From: Escherichia coli
GTDB lineage: Bacteria; Pseudomonadota; Gammaproteobacteria; Enterobacterales; Enterobacteriaceae
DNA: 64,000 bases
Reading direction: 5' to 3' (one strand)
NCBI RefSeq assembly: GCF_024700885.2
Contig: NZ_CP117016.1
Below the pieces are notes generated by a model. That model was not told the origin of the DNA, did not search any database, and saw only the letters and a program-made list of their open reading frames with translations. This document shows positions 3,012-55,653 of this stretch, piece by piece. Each line of letters opens with the position of its first letter. Positions within the stretch are counted from its first letter, which is position 1. Made by a program: the position numbers and the translations under genes.

Positions 3012-3167
3012 TTACTCCTCAGGTTCGTAAACTGTGAAGACAGCGACCTCCGTCTGGCCGGTTCGGATTCGTACCTCGCAGAGGTCTTTCCTCGTTACCA
3101 GTGCCGTCACTATGACGGTTAAACAGATGACGATCAGGGCGATTAACATCGCCTTTTGCTGCTTCAT
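3012..3167 (-). CDS. hok: Hok/Gef-family type I toxin (51 aa membrane peptide)
   Basis: Minus-strand ORF below the 60-aa cutoff of the ORF track; translation MKQQKAMLIALIVICLTVIVTALVTRKDLCEVRIRTGQTEVAVFTVYEPEE is essentially the HokD/Hok sequence as I recall it. Structured GC-rich 3' region and upstream leader present. Confidence 0.85.
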   Translation of the reverse strand: MKQQKAMLIALIVICLTVIVTALVTRKDLCEVRIRTGQTEVAVFTVYEPEE

Positions 3168-3424
3168 AGCCTGCTTCTCCTTGACCTTTCGGTCCGTAAG
3201 AGGCTAATCTCTATGTGTCGCATAGATATGGCCTCAGATTAATGTTAAACGTCTTGCAGGACGCGTAATGTTACCTGGGGCTTTTCTCTATCTGCCGTTG
3301 GTGTTCATGCCCGAGGCAGATAGCCTCAAGCACCCGCAGTCATTCTACTTAACTAAGATTTCCCCGCAAACCGTTTTTGTCCAGCACAATAAATATCCAA
3401 CTAAACCAATGGAGTTCGCTGTAT

Positions 3425-6541: not shown

Positions 6542-6606
6542 CTCTTTTGATACCGAATCTTTTTACTCACAAATTGCCGGAAGTGATCCGGTATGAATAT
6601 TGCGAG

Positions 6607-7032
6607 TCAATGCACAGCCACAATATTTCCTGCAGGGCCACCACGATTCATCTGGTTGAAACCAGCGATCGCCACTGCGACAAAATCATCAGCGTCTCTC
6701 ACCAGTCGTTCCCGCGTCTCCACTAGTTCCCGAAAATAGGCTGAGCTATGACTGCGCATTCGGGCCACCAGCAGAGGTGGCATTGCTTTTTCGATAGCTG
6801 GTAACAACGCCTGAATTTTTTTAACCGCATCAGGGGTGTCTTTCTCCACCCAGCGGAAAATTTTCTGAGTATTGCGAGCCAGGGCTTCCGGATGGCTGTC
6901 GTCATACAGTTCCGGGAACGTCATTCCCAGCTCGAAATACGCTTTGGTAATTTTCACAGCCGGTACTTTTTCGCCGTCCGGATGCGCCCAGGCATTCATC
7001 GCCATGCGGATGTGTTCATGCTTGATTTTCAT
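6607..7032 (-). CDS. YdaT-like prophage protein
   Basis: 141-aa ORF MKIKHEHIRMAMNAWAHPDGEKVP... matching my recollection of Rac YdaT; follows the cro-like gene with ATGA overlap. Confidence 0.6.
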   Translation of the reverse strand: MKIKHEHIRMAMNAWAHPDGEKVPAVKITKAYFELGMTFPELYDDSHPEALARNTQKIFRWVEKDTPDAVKKIQALLPAIEKAMPPLLVARMRSHSSAYFRELVETRERLVRDADDFVAVAIAGFNQMNRGGPAGNIVAVH

Positions 7033-7283
7033 GAATCAACTCCCATCAGCTTTTTCGTAGTAGTTTTATTCCTGCCAATAGTTAAAATTGCATCGGCAGA
7101 AAATAATCCGTTTGATGCAAGAGCGATTTTTTCAGCGTAATTTGTTTCGCCGGTATATTCTGTGCGAGGCAATTTTCCGTTATCCATCCATTTATAGATT
7201 GCTCTTTGGCTGACACCACAAACGTCGGCCACAACAGCAACGCGAACAGTTTTGATTACATCTTCAAGTGTTTTCTGGTTCAT
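7029..7283 (-). CDS. Cro-like / YdaS-like HTH regulator
   Basis: 84 aa from internal Met (MNQKTLEDVIK...); HTH-like segment VCGVSQRAIYKWM; divergent from the DicA-like repressor gene. Start chosen to leave a 79-bp operator region. Confidence 0.55.
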   Translation of the reverse strand: MNQKTLEDVIKTVRVAVVADVCGVSQRAIYKWMDNGKLPRTEYTGETNYAEKIALASNGLFSADAILTIGRNKTTTKKLMGVDS

Positions 7284-7362
7284 ATCACCCTCACAATGTG
7301 AACTTTGAGTACATGCTATAACAGAACTGACAGTACATTCAAGAGCGAATATCATTGAACTT

Positions 7363-7782
7363 ATGGTTCATGAAGATAAAGCGCGTAAAGAGTTCGCCAG
7401 TAGGCTTGCGCTAGCCTGTGAAAACGCTGGTTATGAACAACATGGAAGGCAGGCAGAAATTGCCCGTCGAATGAAATTAACACCAAAAGCGGTTAGCAAA
7501 TGGTTTAATGGCGAAACAATTCCTCGCCGGGAGAAATTAAGGGAATTAGCAACACTAATAGGAACAACACCAACCTATCTTTTGGGAGAGGATACAGAAG
7601 AAAGTGGACAGGTACGTTTCTATCAGGAGTTAAATCCAAGACAAAAAATCATCATTGACCTTCTGGACGAGCTCCCTGACAGTGAGACAGATGAACTTTT
7701 AAAAACTCTTGAAGAGAAAAAACAGAAGTACAATGCAATTTACGAAGAGTTAGCACGAAAGAAAAAACAAAAAGCCTCTTAA
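7363..7782 (+). CDS. DicA/RacR-like XRE-family HTH repressor (immunity repressor)
   Basis: 139-aa ORF with N-terminal HTH and acidic C-terminal helix; heads the ydfABC-dicF-dicB module as dicA does in Qin. Confidence 0.6.
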   Translation: MVHEDKARKEFASRLALACENAGYEQHGRQAEIARRMKLTPKAVSKWFNGETIPRREKLRELATLIGTTPTYLLGEDTEESGQVRFYQELNPRQKIIIDLLDELPDSETDELLKTLEEKKQKYNAIYEELARKKKQKAS

Positions 7783-8079
7783 ACCAGCATAAATCCGGTA
7801 GCGCCTTCCTCCGGGTTTGTGCTTCACTTTATCCCATCTCATTTTTTTACACACAAAATGTACTAAAAGTACTTTACAACAATGAACGCAAAGTACATTA
7901 TATACCTACCACCCACCCCGCCCCACAGAATGCAGGGCAATACTTCGAGTTACCAGGCAGTGGTCAGGGGTTAAGTAGCCAGCCCGAGGCGTAAGAACAT
8001 GACGGCAGGGTTCAACTTTAATAACTATGCAGCAGGTTTTTGTTCCGCTACCCCGGCGTTAAGGGGAAATGAGGTCAGC

Positions 8080-8235
8080 ATGGATACTATCGATCTTGGC
8101 AACAACGAATCTCTGGTGTACGGCGTGTTTCCCAACCAGGACGGCACCTTCACCGCAATGACGTATACCAAAAGCAAAACGTTTAAAACCGAATCTGGAG
8201 CGCGTCGCTGGCTGGAAAGAAATTCAGGTGGGTGA
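8080..8235 (+). CDS. ydfA: YdfA-like small prophage protein
   Basis: 51-aa ORF MDTIDLGNNESLVYGVFPNQDGTF... with good SD (aaggggaaatgagg); matches my recollection of Qin YdfA. Confidence 0.55.
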   Translation: MDTIDLGNNESLVYGVFPNQDGTFTAMTYTKSKTFKTESGARRWLERNSGG

Positions 8236-8236
8236 T

Positions 8237-8368
8237 ATGGATTTCGACACAATCATGGAAAAGGCTTACGAAGAATACTTCGAAGGCCTTGCCGAAGGCG
8301 AAGAAGCTCTCAGCTTCAGCGAATTTAAACAGGCGCTTTCCAGTTCGGCAAAATCTAACGGCTGATAA
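8237..8368 (+). CDS. ydfB: YdfB-like small prophage protein
   Basis: 43-aa ORF MDFDTIMEKAYEEYFEGLAEGEE... immediately after ydfA (1-bp gap). Confidence 0.5.
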
Positions 8369-8394
8369 GCGAAACAGCACCGCGAGGAATCAGC

Positions 8395-8613
8395 GTGCAG
8401 AAACGAGAACCCGTCATCATCGCGCCAGACTATACCGATGATGAACTTTATGAGTGGATGCGCCAGAAAATTAATGCAGCGCAGGATCTGAAATGGGCTA
8501 ATGAAGCCAGGGCTAAGCAGGCTGAAAATCTGTCCGCTCTGGAGCAGGATATCACCAATCTGGAAAAAGCAGCGGCATTAAGCATTGCCAGAATGATTAC
8601 ATACCCGCGTTAG
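8395..8613 (+). CDS. ydfC: YdfC-like prophage protein
   Basis: 72-aa ORF MQKREPVIIAPDYTDDELYEWMRQKINAAQDLKWANEARAKQ...; order ydfA-ydfB-ydfC as in the Qin dicB operon. Confidence 0.55.
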   Translation: MQKREPVIIAPDYTDDELYEWMRQKINAAQDLKWANEARAKQAENLSALEQDITNLEKAAALSIARMITYPR

Positions 8614-8954
8614 TAGCTAATCAACAAAGCTAAGGTTAGTAATTAAGGAGTTCTCCACGGGTGAGGTGGAGTGCGTGCGCCGGACACGGGTGAGCATCCG
8701 GCACTGACAGTTTACTGAAAGGATATTTCCCTGAAAAGTCAGACCATAACGCGAAAGCGCACGGCGAGGTAGCTGGTTCATAGATAGCCTGTCGTTAAAT
8801 TTTCGTCGACCGTGCGCTTCCGGTTGTGGCAATCCGCGAAATGGCGCGGCGGTAAGTATGGCGGGGTTATTCCTTCCCCCGTTGAGGACACCGGGTTGTC
8901 AGGTTGACCATACGCTTAAGTGACAACCCCGCTGCAACGCCCTCTGTTATCAAT

Positions 8955-9007
8955 TTTCTGGTGACGTTTGGCGGTATCAGTTTTACTCCGTGACTGCTCT
9001 GCCGCCC
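8955..9007 (+). ncRNA. dicF: DicF small RNA (ftsZ-targeting sRNA processed from the dicB operon transcript)
   Basis: 53-nt stretch tttctggtgacgtttggcggtatcagttttactccgtgactgctctgccgccc followed by TTTTT; matches the DicF sequence as I recall it and sits between ydfC and dicB. Confidence 0.75.
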
Positions 9008-9181
9008 TTTTTAAAGTGAATTTTGTGATGCGGTGAATGCGGCTAAGCGCACGCGGAACAGTTAAAACCAAAAACAGTGTTATGGGTGGATTCTCTGTAT
9101 CCGGCGTTAATTGTTAACTGGTTAACGTCACCTGGAGGCACCAGGCACCGCATCACAAAACTCATTGTTGAGGGCGCGATA

Positions 9182-9370
9182 ATGAAAACGTTATTACCAA
9201 ACGTTAATACGTCTGAAGGTTGTTTTGAAATTGGTGTCACTATCAGTAATCCTGTATTTACTGAAGAGGCCATTAACAAAAGAAAACACGAACGGGAGTT
9301 ATTAAATAAAGTATGCATTGTTTCAATGCTGGCCCGTTTACGTCTGATGCCAAAAGGATGTGCACAATGA
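9182..9370 (+). CDS. dicB: cell-division inhibitor DicB
   Basis: 62-aa product MKTLLPNVNTSEGCFEIGVTISNPVFTEEAINKRKHERELLNKVCIVSMLARLRLMPKGCAQ is near-identical to DicB as I recall it. Confidence 0.85.
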   Translation: MKTLLPNVNTSEGCFEIGVTISNPVFTEEAINKRKHERELLNKVCIVSMLARLRLMPKGCAQ

Positions 9371-9558
9371 ATCCAGTATTTGCACTTATTCTGACGGTTT
9401 TTCTTGTTTCCGGAGAGCCAGTTGATATTGCAGTCAGTGTTCACAGAACAATGCAGGAATGTATGGCAGCAGCAACCGAACAGAAAATTCCAGGCAACTG
9501 TTATCCGGTCGATAAAGTTATTCACCAGGATAATAACGAAATCCCGGCAGGATTTTAA
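9367..9558 (+). CDS. ydfD: YdfD-like small protein with N-terminal hydrophobic segment
   Basis: 63-aa ORF MNPVFALILTVFLVSGEPVDIAV...; ATGA overlap with dicB stop. Confidence 0.65.
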   Translation: MNPVFALILTVFLVSGEPVDIAVSVHRTMQECMAAATEQKIPGNCYPVDKVIHQDNNEIPAGF

Positions 9559-9651
9559 AACAGCACCGTAATAAATATCCAGTTTCATTCTTATATGTCA
9601 GCAATGGCAGAGATTTGTTCACCCTTAAATCTGTGATGAGGTTTATCAATA

Positions 9652-12093
9652 ATGAGCACTGATAAAGAAGAATTTGCACTATATTGCGAAGCAAAAAATG
9701 ACAAAGTAAGAAAACGCCTAGGAATTAAAGGTGGTTTTTACTGGACTACAGCAAAAAAATTATCTGTTGCAATCTCCCGCTGCATTACCGCAATGGATGA
9801 CAACGATTATGATGAAGACGACTTTAAAAAACCCGTCCGCGTCAATTTGCCCGTTGTTGACGACCTTCCGCCAGAAGGCGTGTTTGATACTGAATTCTGC
9901 AACCGCTATGAAAAAGGCGGGAAAGATGGCATCACAATGACATTTATCGGCCCTTCCCCCTCTGTTCAGGACAAATCAGCCAGCACTGATAATACCAACA
10001 TCAACGGCGAAGACATGACTGAGATTGAGGAGAGCATGCTTCTACCTGTCTCCGGTCAGGAACTGCCCATTCGTTGGCTTGCTCAACACGGCAGCGAAAA
10101 ACCAGTAACGCACGTTTCACGCGACGAACTCCAGGCATTACACATTGCACGGGCTGAAGAACTACCGGCTGTTACTGCCCTGGCTATTTCGCATAAAACC
10201 AGTCTGCTCGACTCGCTGGAGATTCGCGACCTCCACAAACTGGTTCGTGACACTGACAAAGTTTTCCCTAATCCTGGTAATTCAGACCTGGGACTAATAA
10301 CTGCTTTTTTCGAAGCATACCTGGACGCTGACTACACTGATCGGGGTCTGCTGACAAAAGAGTGGATGAAAGGAAATCGTGTTTCACGCATCACCCGCAC
10401 GGCTTCCGGTGCTAATGCTGGCGGTGGGAACAAAACCGATCGCAGTCCGAATTTAGTACACACCCTCGACACACTGGATGTGGAGATTGCAGCAGCCACA
10501 CTTCCGATGGATTTTAATATTTATGAAATTCCGGGCAGCGTTTATCGTCGCGCAAAAGAAGTAGTCCTGAAAAAAGAAAGTCCGTTCAAAGAATGGTCCG
10601 CAGCACTTCGTGCAACCCCGGGTATTCTGGACTATTCCCGCGCCGCTATTTTTGCACTTATCCGAAGCGCACACCCTGAATTTTATCACTACCCGGGACG
10701 CCTTCAGGGGTATATCAACGCCTATTTGACGGAAACTGATCACGAGAACCCCAGCAAGGAAACTCTCACAGCTGCCCGGCATACGCCGGAAAAAGATATC
10801 CTGGAAGAAATTAACCGCGAGGTGGTTACTGAGCGTGAAACAGAAGAAGAAAAACCACAACCATCTGACGCAATGGCAGGTGAACAGGCAACAACTGAAA
10901 CAATGGAACCGGATACAACTGAACATTGCCAGAACGCGCAGTCGCTGGATGCTCAGTCGCAGGTGAGTTCCGCTAACCAAGTAAAAGTCACCGCTGACGA
11001 AGTAAACAAAATTATGCAGGCAGCCAATATCAGCCAGCCTGACGCCGATAAGTTACTTGCTGTATCGCGTGGTGAATTTGTTGAGGGGATTAGCGACCCT
11101 AATGATCCGAAATGGGTCAAGGGGATCCAGACTCGCGATTCTGTGAACCAGAACCAGCATGAATCGGAACGGAACGACCAAAAAGCGGAACAAAACAGCC
11201 CAAATGCGTTACAAAACGAGCCAGAAACGAAACAATCCGAACCAGTAGCGCAACAGGAACCGGAAAAAGTCTGCACCGCCTGCGGTCAGAGCGGTGGCGG
11301 CAACTGCCCTGATTGTGGCGCGGTGATGGGCGACGCAACATACCAGAAAACATTCGATGAAGAGAATCAGGTTGAAGTTCAGGAAAATGATCCGGAGGAA
11401 ATGGAAGGCGCTGAACATCCACACAAGGAGAATGCTGGCAGCGCTCAGGACCACGCCAGCGATAGTAAAACTGGCGAGACGGCAGATCCCTTAATTACGG
11501 TGAATGGTCATCACGAAATCACATCCACCAGCAGGACGTGTGACCATCTAATGATCGACCTTGAAACCATGGGAAAAAATCCTGATGCCCCGATCATCTC
11601 AATAGGTGCAATATTTTTCGATCCGCAAACCGGAGATATGGGACCGGAATTTAGTAAGACTATCGATCTGGAAACTGCTGGCGGAGTCATTGATCGGGAC
11701 ACCATTAAATGGTGGCTTAAGCAATCACGCGAAGCGCAATCTGCCATTATGACCGATGAAATCCCGTTAGATGATGCACTGTTACAATTGCGGGAATTTA
11801 TCGACGAAAACTCCGGTGAATTTTTTGTTCAGGTCTGGGGAAATGGAGCCAACTTCGACAACACGATTTTGCGCCGTTCATACGAACGGCAGGGGATCCC
11901 CTGCCCGTGGCGTTACTACAACGATCGCGATGTACGCACAATCGTTGAGCTGGGGAAAGCCATAGACTTCGATGCCAGAACGGCTATTCCATTCGAAGGT
12001 GAGCGCCATAATGCACTTGATGACGCTCGTTACCAGGCAAAATACGTTTCAGCTATCTGGCAAAAACTGATCCCGAGTCAGGCTGATTTTTAA
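9652..12093 (+). CDS. YdfE-like large prophage protein with C-terminal DEDDh (DnaQ-like) 3'-5' exonuclease domain
   Basis: 813-aa ORF; the C-terminal ~190 aa carry exonuclease motifs (MIDLETMG..., ...[13 protein letters not shown]..., ...HNALDDAR); preceded by an acidic low-complexity linker and a Cys4 zinc ribbon (CTACG...CPDCG); in the ydfE position between ydfD and xis. Confidence 0.6.
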
Positions 12094-12151: not shown

Positions 12152-12355
12152 ATGAGCAGCTTATTTTTAACCGAAGATGAATTGCTAATATTAACGGGCT
12201 GCAAATATGCAAGCCACCAGCGAAAATGGTTAATGGAAAACGGGCTTCCGTTCTATACCAATCGTAGTGGCAAACCGATTGTCAGCCGGGATCTATTTAC
12301 CTGCAATAAAACTTTACCACCACGCGAGGTAGAGCCGAATTTTGGTGCGATCTGA
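12152..12355 (+). CDS. xis: excisionase (Xis-like)
   Basis: 67-aa ORF immediately upstream of and overlapping (ATGA-type) the integrase start. Confidence 0.6.
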   Translation: MSSLFLTEDELLILTGCKYASHQRKWLMENGLPFYTNRSGKPIVSRDLFTCNKTLPPREVEPNFGAI

Positions 12356-13380
12356 TGGGAAGACGAAGGAAAAATCCTGAACACGAAAAATTACCTCCAA
12401 ATGTATACCCAAATAAATATAGTTATGTATGGAAACCAACATCCAGAGAATCTGTAACACTAACCGCCATCAAGGATGGTTTAGCTGCTTTATGGAAAAA
12501 GTATGAGGAAACTGTAAATAATCGCGATCGTGCAATGACATTCGGTCGCTTGTGGGAAAAATTCCTCGCCAGCGCCTGTTACAGTGACCTTAGCCCAAGA
12601 ACACAAAAAGATTATCTGCAACATCAAAAAAAGTTGCTTGCCGTATTCGGTAAGGTACCAGCGGATTCCATAAAACCAGAACACATCCGTCGATACATGG
12701 ACAAAAGAGGGGAACAGAGCAAAACGCAAGCCAACCATGAAAAAAGCAGTATGTCCCGCGTTTACAGTTGGGGATATGAGCGAGGGTACGTGAAGGTTAA
12801 CCCATGTGCAGGTGTAAGTAAATTCAAGGCCAAAAACCGCGAACGATATGTAACCGACAAAGAATACCAGGCAGTATTAAGCGTTGCACCTCTTCCTGTT
12901 TTTATCGCAATGGAAATTGCCTATCTGTGTGCAGCGAGGGTTTCCGATGTGTTATCGCTGAAATGGGAGCAGATTGGAAACGACGGGATCTTTATCCAGC
13001 AAGGGAAAACAGGGAAAAAACAGATAAAAGCATGGAGTCCACGATTACAGGCGGCGATCGAAAAAGCAAAACAGTTACCAACATCCGCCTATGTAATCAG
13101 CAATCAATACGGCAACCGATATATGTACAAAGGCTTTAACGAAATGTGGGTAGAAGCAAGAAATCGCGCAGGCAAAATTTCAGGTATTTTAACCGACTTC
13201 ACCTTTCATGATCTGAAGGCGAAAGGAATTTCAGACTATGAAGGAAGCAGTCGGGATAAGCAACTTTTCTCTGGTCACAAAACCGAGGGGCAAGTGCTAA
13301 TCTATGACAGGAAGGTTAAAGTTTCACCGACACTTGATGTCCCGTTACCTGAAAATATTCCAAGAAAATATTCCAAGTAA
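12355..13380 (+). CDS. int: lambda-family tyrosine integrase
   Basis: 341-aa ORF starting MGRRR... like lambda Int; transcribed toward the tRNA-Ser 3' end, which lies 52 bp downstream. Confidence 0.85.
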   Translation: MGRRRKNPEHEKLPPNVYPNKYSYVWKPTSRESVTLTAIKDGLAALWKKYEETVNNRDRAMTFGRLWEKFLASACYSDLSPRTQKDYLQHQKKLLAVFGKVPADSIKPEHIRRYMDKRGEQSKTQANHEKSSMSRVYSWGYERGYVKVNPCAGVSKFKAKNRERYVTDKEYQAVLSVAPLPVFIAMEIAYLCAARVSDVLSLKWEQIGNDGIFIQQGKTGKKQIKAWSPRLQAAIEKAKQLPTSAYVISNQYGNRYMYKGFNEMWVEARNRAGKISGILTDFTFHDLKAKGISDYEGSSRDKQLFSGHKTEGQVLIYDRKVKVSPTLDVPLPENIPRKYSK

Positions 13381-13432: not shown

Positions 13433-13522
13433 TGGCGGAGAGAGGGGGATTTGAACCCCCGGTAGAGTTGCCCCTACTCCGGTTTTCGAGACCGGTCCGT
13501 TCAGCCGCTCCGGCATCTCTCC
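13433..13522 (-). tRNA. serU: tRNA-Ser (anticodon CGA)
   Basis: Reverse complement reads GGAGAGATGCCGGAGCGGCTGAACGGACCGGTCTCGAAAACCGG...CTCTCTCCGCCA, a 90-nt class II tRNA with anticodon CGA and encoded CCA. Confidence 0.9.
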
Positions 13523-14513: not shown

Positions 14514-14589
14514 TCCTCTGTAGTTCAGTCGGTAGAACGGCGGACTGTTAATCCGTATGTCACTGGTTCGAGTCCAGTCAGAGGAGCCA
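14514..14589 (+). tRNA. asnT: tRNA-Asn (GUU)
   Basis: 76-nt TCCTCTGTAGTTCAGTCGGTAGAACGGCGGACTGTTAATCCGTATGTCACTGGTTCGAGTCCAGTCAGAGGAGCCA; its 3' end is the HPI attachment site. Confidence 0.95.
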
Positions 14590-20614: not shown

Positions 20615-22403
20615 TTTCCACCACCTCTTCCTGTGTTCCACCCGGCACCCAATGCTGCGCCTGCTGATAGTGTTGCCAGAGCCGTTGATACAGGCCGCCC
20701 TGCGCCAACAGTTGCGTATGGTTCCCCATTTCCCTGAGTTGTCCGTCGGAAAACAGCAATATCACATCGGCCTGAGTCACCATTGAGAGACGATGCGCGA
20801 CCATGATGACCGTCCGGCCACGCATGGCCGCCGCGAGCGCCTTGATAAGCGCCGCTTCGTTTTCCGGGTCAGCAAACGCCGTCGCCTCATCGAGCACCAG
20901 GATGGGGCGATCCTGCAAAAGCGCCCGGGCGATAGTAATGCGCTGCCGCTGGCCGCCGGAGAGAAATACCCCACGTTCCCCGACTCGAGTGTTGTAACCT
21001 TCTGGCAGAGCGCTAATAAAATCATGGGCCTGCGCCACTCTGGCCGCCGCTATAACCGCCTCCAGCGGCGTATCCGGCGCGCCCAGACGAATGTTATTGG
21101 CTATCGTGTCGGCAAAAAGGAAGTTGTCCTGAAACACAAACGAGAGTTGCTTCATCAGGGTGTCCGTCTGCATATCACGCAGATCCACGCCGCCAATACG
21201 GATATGGCCTTTGTCCGGGTCGGCGTAACGCAGCAGCAAGCGCGCCACGGTGCTTTTTCCGGCGCCGCTTGGCCCGACCAGCGCCACAATTTGCCCGGCA
21301 GGCACATGAAAGCTCACCTCCTGCAACGCGGCGCCAGTACGCGCTTGCGGATAATGAAAGCTCACCTGCTCAAAGGTAATGCTCGCCTCTTGCGGCTGCT
21401 GGTCAGACTGCGGCAGCGATAACTCCGGCATCGCGAGAACCTGATAAATACGCTGAATGCTTAAACGCGTTTGCGCGACCAGGTTATTGAGCATCATCAT
21501 TGGCATTACGGCTTCGGCCATTCCGCTGCCCAGCAGTAAAACGGCCACCCACGCGATAAAATCGAAACTGCCATAGTGCAACAGGCCGTATCCCGACCAG
21601 ATCAGGACAAACAGGGTCGGGAGAGGATTCAGAATCGAGAAGGAAAAACGCGCTGAAAAACCGGCTTTGCGATACCAGGTTTTGAGCACATCGACCCACT
21701 CTTCAAGGGCGCGTTGATAGCGCAAAAAACTGGTGCTGCCGCTATCAAACGTTCTCACCACGGGCATGGCCTGCACGAACTCAATAACCGCCGCGCTAAC
21801 CTGCTCGCGCGCCTTATGATAACGCTGAGCCATATTTTCCGAACGCTGGCGGGCGAGCACGAGAACAACCGATCCAAACGCCAGTACCCCCAGCGTCGCG
21901 ATTGCCAGCCGCCAGTCCAGCCAGAACAAGATAACGATTGTCGCCAGCGGCATGATGATCGCGCGGGCATAGAGCGGCGTGCTGTCGGCCACAAAAATAT
22001 GTAACGACTTCACGTCATCCAGCATCACTTTCGCCACTGACCCGCTGCCCATTTGCTGTAACACGCCAGGCGGAAGCTGCAATGCTTTACGGGCTAACCT
22101 GCTGCGCAGAATGTTCTCCAGATGAAAAGCCGCGTAATGAGAGGTGTTGAACGCCTGTAAGCGCAGAACAAAAGTTAAGACCACGCAGCCGATCACGCCG
22201 CCCAGCGGCCAGGCCGGAATAGCGTCAGGCGTCGCGCGAATGTCACGCAGGCTCCACGCCAGAAAAAGGAGCGCCCCCAGGCTGGTTAATGCCGCCAGCC
22301 CCGCCAGCGCCATAGCTAAAATAACCTTCCTGCGAACCGGTGTAATCACCTGCCAGAGAGGAAATCGGGACAGCGATTCAGTATTGGATGATTGAGATGA
22401 CAT
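20601..22403 (-). CDS. ybtP: ABC transporter permease/ATPase fusion YbtP (Irp6)
   Basis: 600-aa ORF; Walker A GPSGAGKST, signature LSGGQRQRITIARAL; first gene of ybtPQXS, divergent from ybtA. Confidence 0.9.
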   Translation of the reverse strand: MSSQSSNTESLSRFPLWQVITPVRRKVILAMALAGLAALTSLGALLFLAWSLRDIRATPDAIPAWPLGGVIGCVVLTFVLRLQAFNTSHYAAFHLENILRSRLARKALQLPPGVLQQMGSGSVAKVMLDDVKSLHIFVADSTPLYARAIIMPLATIVILFWLDWRLAIATLGVLAFGSVVLVLARQRSENMAQRYHKAREQVSAAVIEFVQAMPVVRTFDSGSTSFLRYQRALEEWVDVLKTWYRKAGFSARFSFSILNPLPTLFVLIWSGYGLLHYGSFDFIAWVAVLLLGSGMAEAVMPMMMLNNLVAQTRLSIQRIYQVLAMPELSLPQSDQQPQEASITFEQVSFHYPQARTGAALQEVSFHVPAGQIVALVGPSGAGKSTVARLLLRYADPDKGHIRIGGVDLRDMQTDTLMKQLSFVFQDNFLFADTIANNIRLGAPDTPLEAVIAAARVAQAHDFISALPEGYNTRVGERGVFLSGGQRQRITIARALLQDRPILVLDEATAFADPENEAALIKALAAAMRGRTVIMVAHRLSMVTQADVILLFSDGQLREMGNHTQLLAQGGLYQRLWQHYQQAQHWVPGGTQEEVVENERQ

Positions 22404-22481
22404 GGGAGTAACTGAATTTCCTGATGAATTTTTACGGACGCCAAAAACGACAATTCAGGGTGGCGTTCTGAGAATTAATGT

Positions 22482-22536
22482 GAATAATAACCATTATCAA
22501 TAACTCATCTACCCCATTCGGTTCTATTTATACCCG
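22482..22536 (-). promoter_or_regulatory. ybtP promoter region: Fur-box-like sequence plus YbtA repeat (RS) in reverse orientation
   Basis: gaataataaccattatc (22482-22498) resembles the Fur consensus; the reverse complement of 22509-22536 (cgggtataaatagaaccgaatggggtag) parallels the RS palindromes upstream of irp2 and fyuA. Confidence 0.45.
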
Positions 22537-22569
22537 CATTGGTCTAAGCCACAGGGAGATAACCAGGTC

Positions 22570-23529
22570 ATGACGGAGTCACCGCAAACGCAATCTGAAA
22601 TCTCTATTCACCAGTTGGTGGTCGGGAAACCTGCAAACGATGGCAATATTCCTGCTCAGTGTGAACTGCTGCGCTGTTCGTTGCAGGAAGGTATGGATAT
22701 TTTGCTCTGGAGGGGCCATTTTGCGCGGCCAGAGACGTTGCAGCTACACGACGATCTGGGCAGGATTAACTTCTCGTGCATCCTGGAAGGCACATCGCGC
22801 TTTGCGATTCAGGGACTCCGGCGCCACACCGACTGGGAGCTTGCGCGCAATCGCCATTACATTACCCATACGCCAGACTGTCGCGGCAGCGCCTCCTATT
22901 GTGGCCGATTCGAGAGCATTACCCTCTCCTTCAGCCCTGAAACCCTCGCGCTGTGGGTGCCGGATATTAGCGCGGTCATTAAGAATAAGATCGACTCCCA
23001 CTGCTGTTGCCAGCAGCAGCGTTGTAATGCTGAAACCCACTTAACGGCTCAGGCCTTGCGTCACGCGCTGATGCGCATGCACGGCGGCTTCAGTCATGAA
23101 CAAAAGCCGTCGACGCTATGGTTGCAGGGGCAAAGTCTGGTCATGCTCAGCCTGGTGCTGGATGAACATCGCGAAGACGCCAGTTGCCTCTCCTGCCACT
23201 TCAACCCGATGGAACGCCAGAAACTGCTGCGGGCGAAGGATCTGCTGCTGGCTGATCTGACGCAAGCGCCGGGCGTCGCGGAGCTGGCCAGAGAGTCCGG
23301 TCTGAGCGTTCTCAAAATTAAGCGAGGCTTCCGCGTTCTGTTCAACAACAGCGTCTATGGCCTGTTTCAGGCTGAACGAATGCAGGAAGCCAGAAGACGC
23401 CTGGCCAACGGCAATACCTCCGTCATGACGGTGGCGGCCGATCTGGGCTATGCCAACGCCAGCCATTTCTCTGCCGCCTTCCAGAAACAGTTTGGCGTAA
23501 CTCCTTCGACCTTTAAACGCGGGATGTAA
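22570..23529 (+). CDS. ybtA: AraC-family transcriptional activator YbtA
   Basis: 319-aa ORF with C-terminal AraC-type HTH (...GYANASHFSAAFQKQFGVTPSTF); located between ybtP and irp2. Confidence 0.9.
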   Translation: MTESPQTQSEISIHQLVVGKPANDGNIPAQCELLRCSLQEGMDILLWRGHFARPETLQLHDDLGRINFSCILEGTSRFAIQGLRRHTDWELARNRHYITHTPDCRGSASYCGRFESITLSFSPETLALWVPDISAVIKNKIDSHCCCQQQRCNAETHLTAQALRHALMRMHGGFSHEQKPSTLWLQGQSLVMLSLVLDEHREDASCLSCHFNPMERQKLLRAKDLLLADLTQAPGVAELARESGLSVLKIKRGFRVLFNNSVYGLFQAERMQEARRRLANGNTSVMTVAADLGYANASHFSAAFQKQFGVTPSTFKRGM

Positions 23530-51345: not shown

Positions 51346-51421
51346 TGGCTCCTCTGACTGGACTCGAACCAGTGACATACGGATTAACAGTCCGCCGTTC
51401 TACCAACTGAACTACAGAGGA
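51346..51421 (-). tRNA. asnW: tRNA-Asn (GUU), variant copy with one D-loop substitution
   Basis: Reverse complement is identical to the other three Asn tRNAs except AGTTGGTAG instead of AGTCGGTAG in the D-loop. Confidence 0.93.
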
Positions 51422-53169: not shown

Positions 53170-53245
53170 TCCTCTGTAGTTCAGTCGGTAGAACGGCGGA
53201 CTGTTAATCCGTATGTCACTGGTTCGAGTCCAGTCAGAGGAGCCA
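53170..53245 (+). tRNA. asnU: tRNA-Asn (GUU)
   Basis: 76-nt sequence identical to asnT. Confidence 0.95.
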
Positions 53246-55577: not shown

Positions 55578-55653
55578 TCCTCTGTAGTTCAGTCGGTAGA
55601 ACGGCGGACTGTTAATCCGTATGTCACTGGTTCGAGTCCAGTCAGAGGAGCCA
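55578..55653 (+). tRNA. asnV: tRNA-Asn (GUU)
   Basis: 76-nt sequence identical to asnT. Confidence 0.95.

Follow-up and report, generated by a model that had tools for sequence, protein, structure and literature searches.

Among the closest described systems is the dicBF operon of Qin, a cryptic prophage of Escherichia coli K-12. The operon, its small RNA DicF and the protein DicB are already known and have been the subject of decades of study. With Hfq, DicF represses translation of ftsZ and of metabolic mRNAs (PMC5069750, PMC10448788, bioRxiv 10.1101/708461, PMC8835842). In K-12, DicB acts through MinC against FtsZ-ring assembly, an inhibition that also depends on ZipA (PMC5069750, with DicB literature including bioRxiv 10.1101/708461). 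DicB also impairs inner-membrane phage receptors, and YdfD causes lysis (PMC5069750, PMC10448788, bioRxiv 10.1101/708461, PMC8835842). Longer DicF species have been described as well, one of 72 nt (PMC5069750) and one of 190 nt that depends on RNase III and is stable in stationary phase; an RNase III coordinate is given as '813/814' (PMC10448788). For Qin, a route of derepression by the antirepressor Rem has been described (PMC10448788).

Here we compare this system with a locus in a 64-kb stretch of E. coli DNA, called the window below. The dicF/dicB division-inhibition module at this locus, proposed in a preliminary description, is real. The locus is ordinary apart from a folded RNA just 5' of DicF.

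The dicBF cassette

DicF had been placed at 8955-9007 and was said to be followed by a T-tract. Both statements hold. A scan with the Rfam DicF model RF00039 gave a significant match at 8956-9007 on the plus strand (76.7 bits, gathering threshold 48, E 3.6e-15), which covers the full model (positions 1-52 of 52). In a pairwise alignment, all 53 bases of 8955-9007 are identical to the annotated dicF of K-12 (b1574). The predicted fold contains a terminator hairpin at 8970-9006 (-15.9 kcal/mol), followed by UUUUU at 9008-9012, and leaves the 5' region single-stranded. DicF is located inside the dicB operon, between the end of ydfC at 8613 and the start of dicB at 9182. Its pairing with ftsZ would be expected from the 53/53 identity to the experimentally tested K-12 RNA. 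A crude RNAduplex energy against the K-12 ftsZ leader did not set DicF apart, as 33 of 500 shuffled DicF sequences were equally good. The RNA was also expected to escape annotation based on open reading frames, and the RefSeq pipeline (PGAP) indeed omits dicF at a 100%-identical locus. Adding it is one use of the present analysis for annotation.

The protein-coding genes of the operon are all on the plus strand. The first, ydfA (8080-8235), encodes a 51-residue DUF1391 protein of PHROG 751 that is 98% identical to K-12 YdfA, in agreement with the RefSeq annotation of the identical locus. It is followed by ydfB (8237-8365, 42 residues, 100% identical to K-12 YdfB) and ydfC (8395-8613, 72 residues, 98.6% identical to K-12 YdfC). 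The alignment shows a GTG start codon for ydfC in the window and ATG in K-12. The cell-division inhibitor gene dicB is located at 9182-9370 and encodes 62 residues. The description of this reading frame as a near-perfect DicB is supported by BLASTP, with 59 of 62 residues (95%) identical to K-12 DicB, and by a match to NCBIfam NF049927 over residues 1-62 of 62 (130.7 bits, cut-off 100). The start of ydfD (9367-9558) overlaps the dicB stop in the sequence ATGA. Its 63-residue product belongs to DUF1482 and PHROG 1092 and is 88.9% identical to K-12 YdfD, which is annotated as 'lysis protein'. The five genes ydfA, ydfB, ydfC, dicB and ydfD are all intact.

DNA alignment and protein comparisons agree that the order ydfABC-dicF-dicB-ydfD is that of K-12, as had been proposed, and the non-coding spacers are conserved too. 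The next gene in the operon differs. In the window, it is an intact exonuclease gene (9652-12093, plus strand, 813 residues), with matches to PHROG exonuclease families and a below-cut-off match of residues 1-616 to the NCBIfam exodeoxyribonuclease VIII model. In K-12, this position holds only ydfE, a pseudogene disrupted by IS2. In a survey of complete genomes, the dicBF cassette was found in 2411 of 5426 E. coli genomes, and it is therefore already known. With the operon long studied and the cassette present in nearly half of the complete genomes, this main finding is of little importance.

Immunity region and host prophage

The operon had been described as lying downstream of a DicA-like HTH repressor named dicA. 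The general assignment holds, and the name does not. The gene at 7363-7782 (plus strand) encodes 139 residues with an HTH_3 domain at residues 29-73 (E 5.5e-9), and its product is called 'CI repressor' in phage Tritos. It has the layout of a DicA-type protein, about 135 residues with an N-terminal HTH, and is co-oriented with and immediately upstream of the operon promoter; its last base is 7782, ahead of the promoter-like site at 7873-7901. It is 29% identical to DicA over 112 residues. Against the NCBIfam DicA subfamily model NF007257, however, it reaches 56.8 bits, below the cut-off of 101. By these comparisons, the protein is a distant relative of DicA and not its orthologue, and is the putative repressor of the downstream operon. 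The name 'DicA' is thus wrong for it, which matters when the trigger for derepression of the toxic operon is to be predicted.

Divergent from the repressor gene, an 84-residue Cro-like HTH protein is encoded at 7029-7283 on the minus strand (PHROG 35 transcriptional repressor, E 7e-14; Pfam HTH_17). BLASTP gave no alignment between it and K-12 DicC at E<=100. It is a functional analogue of DicC and Cro, not a homologue of DicC. A CII-like/YdaT gene and a replication gene are found beyond it.

Four operator-like 17-mers were found around the repressor gene. Two of them, GTGAAC-N5-GTACAT at 7298-7314 and CAGAAC-N5-GTACAT at 7322-7338 (repeat family D1), are 24 bp apart in the intergenic region between the cro-like and repressor genes. 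The site at 7322-7338 is the one of the four that deviates in its left half-site. In the promoter scan, this pair overlaps a promoter-like site at 7327-7355, from which the repressor mRNA would be nearly leaderless. The other two, ATGTAC-N5-GTACTT at 7858-7874 and ATGAAC-N5-GTACAT at 7882-7898 (repeats D1/D3/I11), overlap the -35 and -10 hexamers of the predicted operon promoter TTTACA-17-CATTAT (7873-7901, plus strand), the putative equivalent of pL and dicBp. The simple promoter scan gave seven sites in total against 4.6 in shuffled sequences, which is only a slight excess. The motif TGWAC-N5-GTAC has three matches in the 64-kb window, where 0.4 are expected, and all three flank the repressor gene. 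A 10-kb stretch of the K-12 Qin locus contains no match to it. The arrangement is that of a lambdoid switch, with divergent HTH genes, operators between them and a second set of operators over the promoter of the leftward operon. The repeats and their geometry suggest that the repressor binds these sites.

DNA homology to K-12 Qin extends only from about 8038 to about 9645, and the repressor gene and promoter region are without it. Because of this, and because the Cro-like partner shows no similarity to DicC and the operator motif is absent from Qin, the module reads as a dicBF cassette that recombination has placed behind another immunity region. We consider it very likely that a Tritos-like lambdoid prophage is integrated at serU, a tRNA-Ser gene, and that 7029-9558 comprises its immunity region and early-left ('pL-type') operon. 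A 100%-identical locus in E. coli MLI114 is part of a prophage that adjoins a tRNA-Ser gene and carries terminase, portal, capsid, lysis, Q, replication, exonuclease and integrase genes. In the immunity genes, operators and operon, which the comparison covers, phage Tritos (OV696610) and the window share the sizes of the CI and Cro genes (420 and 327 bp), the operator motif with the same three matches, and the order ydfABC-dicF-dicB-ydfD-exonuclease. DicF is annotated in Tritos. The lambdoid phages mEp460_ev081, Evi and vB_EcoS-813R8 are related to Tritos, and the same arrangement is found in the isolated phages mEp460_ev081 and Evi.

Unlike Tritos, the window copy is an integrated prophage, and RefSeq marks the integrase of the identical MLI114 locus as frameshifted. 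The prophage may therefore not excise. The frameshift, together with the silence of the K-12 operon under standard conditions (PMC5069750), could point to an inert remnant whose sequence was kept while transcription and regulation were lost. Such a remnant is very improbable, as the six open reading frames are all intact, as are the promoter-like site, operators and terminator, the isolated phages Tritos, mEp460_ev081 and Evi have the same arrangement, and the exonuclease gene, a pseudogene in K-12, is intact here. It is very unlikely that the element is Qin itself, an orthologue of the K-12 cryptic prophage with true dicA and dicC: from ydfA to ydfD, gene order and sequence (about 97% identity) match Qin and hokD is on the same side, but the immunity region is of another type, no homologues of Rem, RelBE, DicC, YdfV or FlxA were found in the window, and the element is located at tRNA-Ser beside mtfA and asnT, not at rspB, and has full structural and lysis genes. 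The Rem route of derepression in Qin has no counterpart in the window.

Predicted control and processing of the operon transcript

In the lysogen, the CI-type repressor of the Tritos-like prophage would bind 17-bp sites of the form nTGwAC-N5-GTACAT, two between its gene and the divergent cro-like gene and two over the promoter at 7873-7901. Binding would silence ydfA-ydfB-ydfC-dicF-dicB-ydfD(-exonuclease-xis-int). Upon derepression, a polycistronic RNA would either terminate at the DicF hairpin or pass through it, as taken from the near-identical K-12 operon. Cleavage by RNase III in a long hairpin at about 8818 would produce the 190-nt species, and cleavage by RNase E at 8954/8955 the 53-nt DicF. 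A further RNase III cut, in a duplex formed by 9015-9034 and 9146-9165, would yield the 72-nt form. From the K-12 work, DicF and Hfq would then repress translation of ftsZ and metabolic mRNAs, DicB would block the FtsZ ring via MinC, and YdfD would lyse the cell. The derepression steps in this scheme come from work on the K-12 operon; sequence identity, gene order, the geometry of promoter and operators and the predicted RNA structures were computed here.

Two predicted structures on the plus strand fit the processing steps. An imperfect hairpin of about 22 bp at 8744-8829 (fold z = -3.1) is likely cut by RNase III to generate the 5' end of 190-nt DicF. The position of this end, about 8818, was derived from the length of the RNA (9007-190+1). 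In the spacer between dicF and dicB (9015-9165), the long-range duplex of 9015-9034 with 9146-9165 comprises about 20 bp, and the fold of 9005-9190 has z = -5.2. This duplex is likely the RNase III site that gives rise to the 3' end of 72-nt DicF (about 9026) and to a processed dicB leader. The predicted RNase III duplexes coincide with the published ends of the 190-nt and 72-nt species, the 5' end at 8818 being the derived one. The spacer also has a sub-threshold match to STnc100 in Rfam (38.8 bits, gathering threshold 47).

A structured RNA domain upstream of DicF

The 137 nt at 8818-8954 (plus strand), which make up the 5' part of the 190-nt species, form a structured RNA domain according to a covariance model (R1) and covariation. 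Its helices are H1 (8823-8830/8938-8945), H2 (8834-8838/8845-8849), H3 (8862-8866/8884-8888) and H4 (8900-8908/8928-8936). Among 57 distinct sequences, 95.4% of the cells are paired and 11 pairs are changed on both sides, and none of 500 shuffles reaches any of the measures. RNAalifold recovers H2-H4 unaided. A pseudoknot between GUAUGG (8856-8861) and CCAUAC (8915-8920) is probable in the modeled fold. The invariance of its strands is weak evidence, because the anchored pattern scans fix some columns by design. The only free position covaries, with UA in 51 sequences, CG in 2, UG in 2 and no unpaired cases. Searches of 7700-9700 against Rfam at E<=10 returned DicF and the sub-threshold STnc100, and no match to the domain. 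In the window, model R1 has a single match (8808-8951, 170 bits), and no second copy that could be an analogue of putR was found with it.

The domain is common to lambdoid prophages of Escherichia, Citrobacter, Trabulsiella, Izhakiella and Serratia symbiotica, and to P1/P7. In every case it is located in a repressor-controlled early operon, and model R1 finds one copy per prophage and none in the rightward operon. A hairpin and U-run follow within about 130 nt in 117 of 118 copies. The seed and terminator after the domain are variable and exchangeable between elements. While the downstream sRNA bodies are swapped, hardly any change is seen in the unpaired junction or in the loop of H4, from the E. 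coli prophages through P1/P7 to Serratia symbiotica and Izhakiella. That a conserved complex fold is joined to exchangeable DicF-like seeds points to a common device for biogenesis or regulation in temperate enterobacterial phages, and this side finding could matter more than the main one.

What the domain does can be read in several ways. It has nearly an even chance of being only a scaffold for processing and stability, inactive by itself, whose fold positions the cuts of RNase III and RNase E and shields the 190-nt precursor. One end falls at the derived RNase III 5' end and the other at the RNase E cut that creates DicF, the domain is joined to a seed and a terminator throughout, and in stationary phase the 190-nt species is stable (PMC10448788). 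The near-invariant junction and H4 loop, however, are under tighter constraint than would seem necessary for a cleavage guide, and P1 and cdtI-type phages are without the Qin-type RNase III hairpin. We tentatively suggest, as a somewhat less probable reading, that 8818-8954, with four or five helices backed by covariation, is a distinct RNA domain with its own function. It may control readthrough or processing in cis at the sRNA terminator, or act in trans after release by RNase E.

It is rather unlikely that the domain is a cis-acting put-like RNA that modifies RNA polymerase or termination, so that part of the transcription passes the DicF terminator to dicB or kil and the recombination genes. 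The put RNA, a cis-acting processive antiterminator, is about 70 nt long with two stem-loops and is present as one copy per early operon and two copies in HK022 (PMC9378689). Both RNAs are structured, and both lie close to the beginning of an early operon of a lambdoid element, with terminators downstream. The regular hairpin and U-run after the domain, where a long operon under repressor control begins, would suit such a role, as would the position of the P1 domain directly after the C1-controlled Pban promoter and before the tRNAs and ban. In addition, nothing resembling an N gene is apparent in the interval from the promoter to ydfA. However, the size and architecture differ, as the domain has about 120 nt with four helices and a pseudoknot. 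It is present once per prophage and not in the rightward operon, and model R1 gave no match to the HK022 genome at E<=1.

The same structured domain is found in the 'dicF-like region' of P1/P7, 3' of Pban, where model R1 scores 102-107 bits. Pairs in H3, H4 and the pseudoknot have changed in a compensatory manner, and the domain is followed by a terminator-like hairpin. The closing helix H1 pairs poorly in P1. Unlike in the window, the downstream RNA body is not DicF, and instead of division inhibitors the products of the operon are tRNAs and the Ban helicase. A riboswitch-like competition between GGCGG in the domain and the CCGCC strand of the terminator was rejected, because the terminator stem of P1 is unrelated although the domain is retained there.

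Sequences resembling dicF in prophages are reportedly the subject of a paper by Faubladier and Bouché from 1994, and the conservation 5' of dicF may thus have been described before. In our comparison, Rac-type prophages and Stx phage 75/02 encode a terminator-ended DicF-like RNA in the early-left operon, but with a different seed; Rac-SA53 and 75/02 are without the complete 5' domain. The RNA is followed by the same conserved spacer (9010-9166 type) and then by a small division inhibitor, which is Kil and not DicB.

The dicBF cassette and its regulatory RNA

The dicBF-type cell-division-inhibition module proposed at 7363-9558 in the preliminary description is real, and it was correctly interpreted apart from the identity of the repressor. 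Its cassette contains ydfA (8080-8235), ydfB (8237-8365), ydfC (8395-8613, GTG start), dicB (9182-9370) and ydfD (9367-9558), all on the + strand. Their products are 98%, 100%, 98.6%, 95% (59/62 residues) and 88.9% identical to the K-12 proteins, respectively. The dicB product scores 130.7 bits against the NCBIfam DicB model (cut-off 100). The ydfC-like and near-perfect DicB reading frames described on either side of DicF are thus confirmed.

An Rfam scan of the whole window at the gathering threshold placed DicF (RF00039) at 8956-9007 (+), with 76.7 bits (gathering score 48) and 52 of 52 model positions matched. The 53 nt at 8955-9007, the stretch assigned to DicF in the preliminary description, are the same as the annotated K-12 dicF at every base. 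The predicted fold has a single-stranded 5' part and a hairpin at 8970-9006, followed by UUUUU at 9008-9012, the T-tract noted earlier. ORF-based annotation was expected to miss this RNA. Indeed, the RefSeq/PGAP annotation of the 100% identical locus in NZ_CP117013 has no dicF ncRNA at 22015-22582 (window 8614-9181); dicF is annotated in the K-12 record and in phage Tritos.

The mechanism published for K-12 should hold for this operon too, given products that match their K-12 counterparts exactly or almost exactly. The operon would be kept off through DicA-type repression of its promoter (PMC10448788). In K-12, RNase III generates a 190-nt species from the polycistronic RNA, and RNase E the 53-nt DicF (PMC10448788, PMC5069750); RNase III also produces a 72-nt form (PMC5069750). 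Together with Hfq, DicF represses ftsZ, xylR, pykA and manX (PMC5069750 among other sources). DicB prevents FtsZ rings from assembling and gives protection from phages dependent on inner-membrane receptors (PMC5069750, bioRxiv 10.1101/708461, PMC8835842 among other sources), and YdfD is a lysis protein (K-12 annotation; bioRxiv 10.1101/708461, PMC8835842). A DicF-ftsZ duplex calculation did not discriminate, so target pairing here rests on identity to the tested K-12 RNA.

The predicted structures fit the published processing map. A hairpin of ~22 bp is predicted at 8744-8829 (z = -3.1); the distance from its duplex at ~8818 to 9007 is exactly 190 nt. Between 9015-9034 and 9146-9165, a long-range duplex of 20 bp is predicted (z = -5.2), and its position ~9026 is 72 nt from 8955. 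This duplex forms the base of the dicF-dicB spacer and would suit as the place where RNase III cuts to give the 72-nt form. The spacer also gives a match to STnc100 below threshold (9019-9159, +; 38.8 bits, gathering 47, E 2e-6), and in Rac-type phages this spacer is found ahead of kil. Downstream of ydfD is an intact gene for an 813-residue exonuclease (9652-12093, +); the corresponding position in K-12 is occupied only by the ydfE pseudogene, which IS2 has disrupted. The first 616 residues give a RecE (exodeoxyribonuclease VIII) match under the family cut-off, and the C-terminal portion hits other families of phage exonuclease.

The immunity region

Alignment with the K-12 Qin prophage locus confined DNA near-identity to ~8038 to ~9645. 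The left edge is 42 nt before the ydfA start and the right edge is just before the next ORF. To the left of ~8038, a stretch that takes in the repressor gene and all of the promoter region, the alignment found no DNA relatedness to Qin. The repressor (7363-7782, +) has 139 residues and an HTH_3 domain. It is 29% identical to DicA across 112 residues and scores 56.8 bits with the NCBIfam DicA model, under the cut-off of 101. The divergent Cro-like gene (7029-7283, -) encodes an 84-residue HTH protein with no detectable similarity to DicC. From these differences, the repressor counts as a heteroimmune protein distantly related to DicA, and the immunity type is different from that of Qin. The earlier description of a DicA-like HTH repressor therefore holds for role and distant ancestry, but the protein is not DicA itself.

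An operator-like 17-bp motif, nTGwAC-N5-GTACAT, occurs four times. One pair (7298-7314 and 7322-7338) is located between the cro-like and repressor genes and the other (7858-7874 and 7882-7898) follows the repressor gene, with 24 bp spacing in each. The core TGWAC-N5-GTAC has 3 matches in the 64 kb versus 0.4 expected, all at these two intergenic places. A promoter scan predicted the operon promoter at 7873-7901 (TTTACA-17-CATTAT), bracketed by the second pair. This is the geometry expected for operon repression, and we infer that the motifs are putative operators. A promoter-like site at 7327-7355, overlapped by the first pair, would yield a repressor mRNA almost without a leader. Phage Tritos, in which the CI and Cro genes are equal in size to those here, has three occurrences of the motif; the K-12 Qin locus has none.

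Prophage context and prevalence

E. coli MLI114 carries a locus with 100% identity to this region. In RefSeq, that locus is a lambdoid prophage with terminase, portal, capsid, lysis, Q, RusA, hokD and replication genes, a YdaT/CII-like gene, two HTH genes, ydfABC, dicB, ydfD, the exonuclease, a DUF4224 gene and an integrase. The integrase is flagged as frameshifted in RefSeq, whereas the window ORF at 12355-13380 (341 residues) reads through the catalytic region. The prophage adjoins tRNA-Ser(CGA) (13433-13522 in the window, -), followed by mtfA, asnT and the yersiniabactin island. By identity to MLI114, this island, with its own integrase, extends from ~14750 onward, right after the first of four identical tRNA-Asn genes (14514-14589, +; 51346-51421, -; 53170-53245, +; 55578-55653, +). 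The prophage also contains a hok/sok type I toxin-antitoxin locus at 3012-3335 (-), composed of sok RNA (3165-3335; RF01794, 100.8 bits) and a hokD ORF (3015-3167) 98% identical to K-12 HokD. Unlike in Qin, no relBE is beside it.

The dicBF system is already known and is very widespread in E. coli. Of 5426 complete genomes of this species, searched at coverage of at least 80%, 2411 have the cassette (8038-9645), 1046 the immunity region (7029-8037) and 262 both together (6600-9700). Isolated phages including Tritos (DicF annotated), mEp460_ev081 and Evi also carry the module.

A conserved RNA domain upstream of DicF

The conserved domain just 5' of DicF (8818-8954, +), which has no Rfam family (no match at E<=10), is the only part of the module that might repay experiments. 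When the non-coding sequence between ydfC and dicB was compared with phage genomes by distant BLAST, this segment proved to be conserved independently. It is present in lambdoid phages that lack DicF proper (cdtI, 2486-2628 of L004; 2H10; Stx2c phages; Salmonella phage F1055), in a Rac-like phage upstream of kil, and in P1 (2479-2615 of L003) and P7 directly behind the C1-controlled Pban promoter. P1's authors labeled this stretch a 'dicF-like region'. Pattern scans covering viral contigs and one genome per species found further variants in E. albertii, Citrobacter, Trabulsiella, Izhakiella (2-129 of L140) and Serratia symbiotica (7120-7266 of L137). R1, a covariance model built for the domain, detected a single copy in the window (8808-8951, 170 bits) and none in HK022.

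The proposed fold contains a closing helix H1 (GGUUGUGGC with GCUGCAACG), a hairpin H2 (CCGCG with CGCGG) and a 9-bp H4 (GGGUUGUCA with UGACAACCC; GAGUUGCCA with UGGCAACUC in P1; GGGUAACCA with UGGUUACCC in Izhakiella). The variable hairpin H3 has compensatory stems (CGGGG/CCCCG, CUGGG/CCCAG, CCCGGG/CCCGGG, CAGGG/CCCUG, CGAGG/CCUCG), and a UCCU-type motif occurs in the majority of its loops. A pseudoknot between junction GUAUGG and H4-loop CCAUAC (GCAUGG with CCAUGC in P1) is probable; the pattern scans fix parts of both regions by design. In a model-guided alignment of 57 distinct, closely related sequences, 95.4% of cells are paired and 11 of 33 pairs change on both sides. On every measure, all 500 shuffles stayed below the observed value; when the register is slid, pairing drops to 35-56%. 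RNAalifold on its own recovered H2, H3 and H4, and added a 3-bp helix (GGU with ACC) with covariation of its own.

The ends of the domain fall at the two published cuts, made by RNase III at ~8818 and by RNase E at 8954/8955. The domain therefore makes up the 5' 137 nt of the 190-nt DicF species already described. This species accumulates stably in stationary phase (PMC10448788); the same paper does not discuss structure or function of its 5' 137 nt. We tentatively propose that the domain may serve as a processing or stability scaffold. Some other or unassigned function takes the share left by this reading and by cis-acting control of terminator readthrough, which we consider unlikely. A hairpin and U-run follow within ~130 nt in 117 of 118 domain copies, and the bodies after the domain comprise at least eight different seed-and-terminator types.

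In the 'long' class of bodies (90-130 nt after the domain; F1055, two Trabulsiella loci, S. symbiotica and Izhakiella), the terminator hairpin encloses a Shine-Dalgarno-like GGAGG and then AUG (for example, GGAGGAGAAGAUAAUGUUCUACCG), which hints at either a very small ORF or a start site sequestered within the terminator. At 2500-2960, the record of 'Actinobacillus phage vB_Apl-pPE4' (PP818812) carries a Rac-like early region of E. coli type; it contains the domain and, upstream of kil, the DicF-like RNA duplicated in tandem. In the Aeromonas jumbo-phage AP1 record (MT713136), a 237-bp stretch shares 98% identity with the dicF-dicB region. Both records look like host misassignment or contamination. 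In an IMG/VR contig (651053022_000007; 2380-2480 of L169), the domain is cut off after H3 and fused to sequence like the 16S rRNA 3' end (GGATCACCTCCTTA), probably an assembly chimera.
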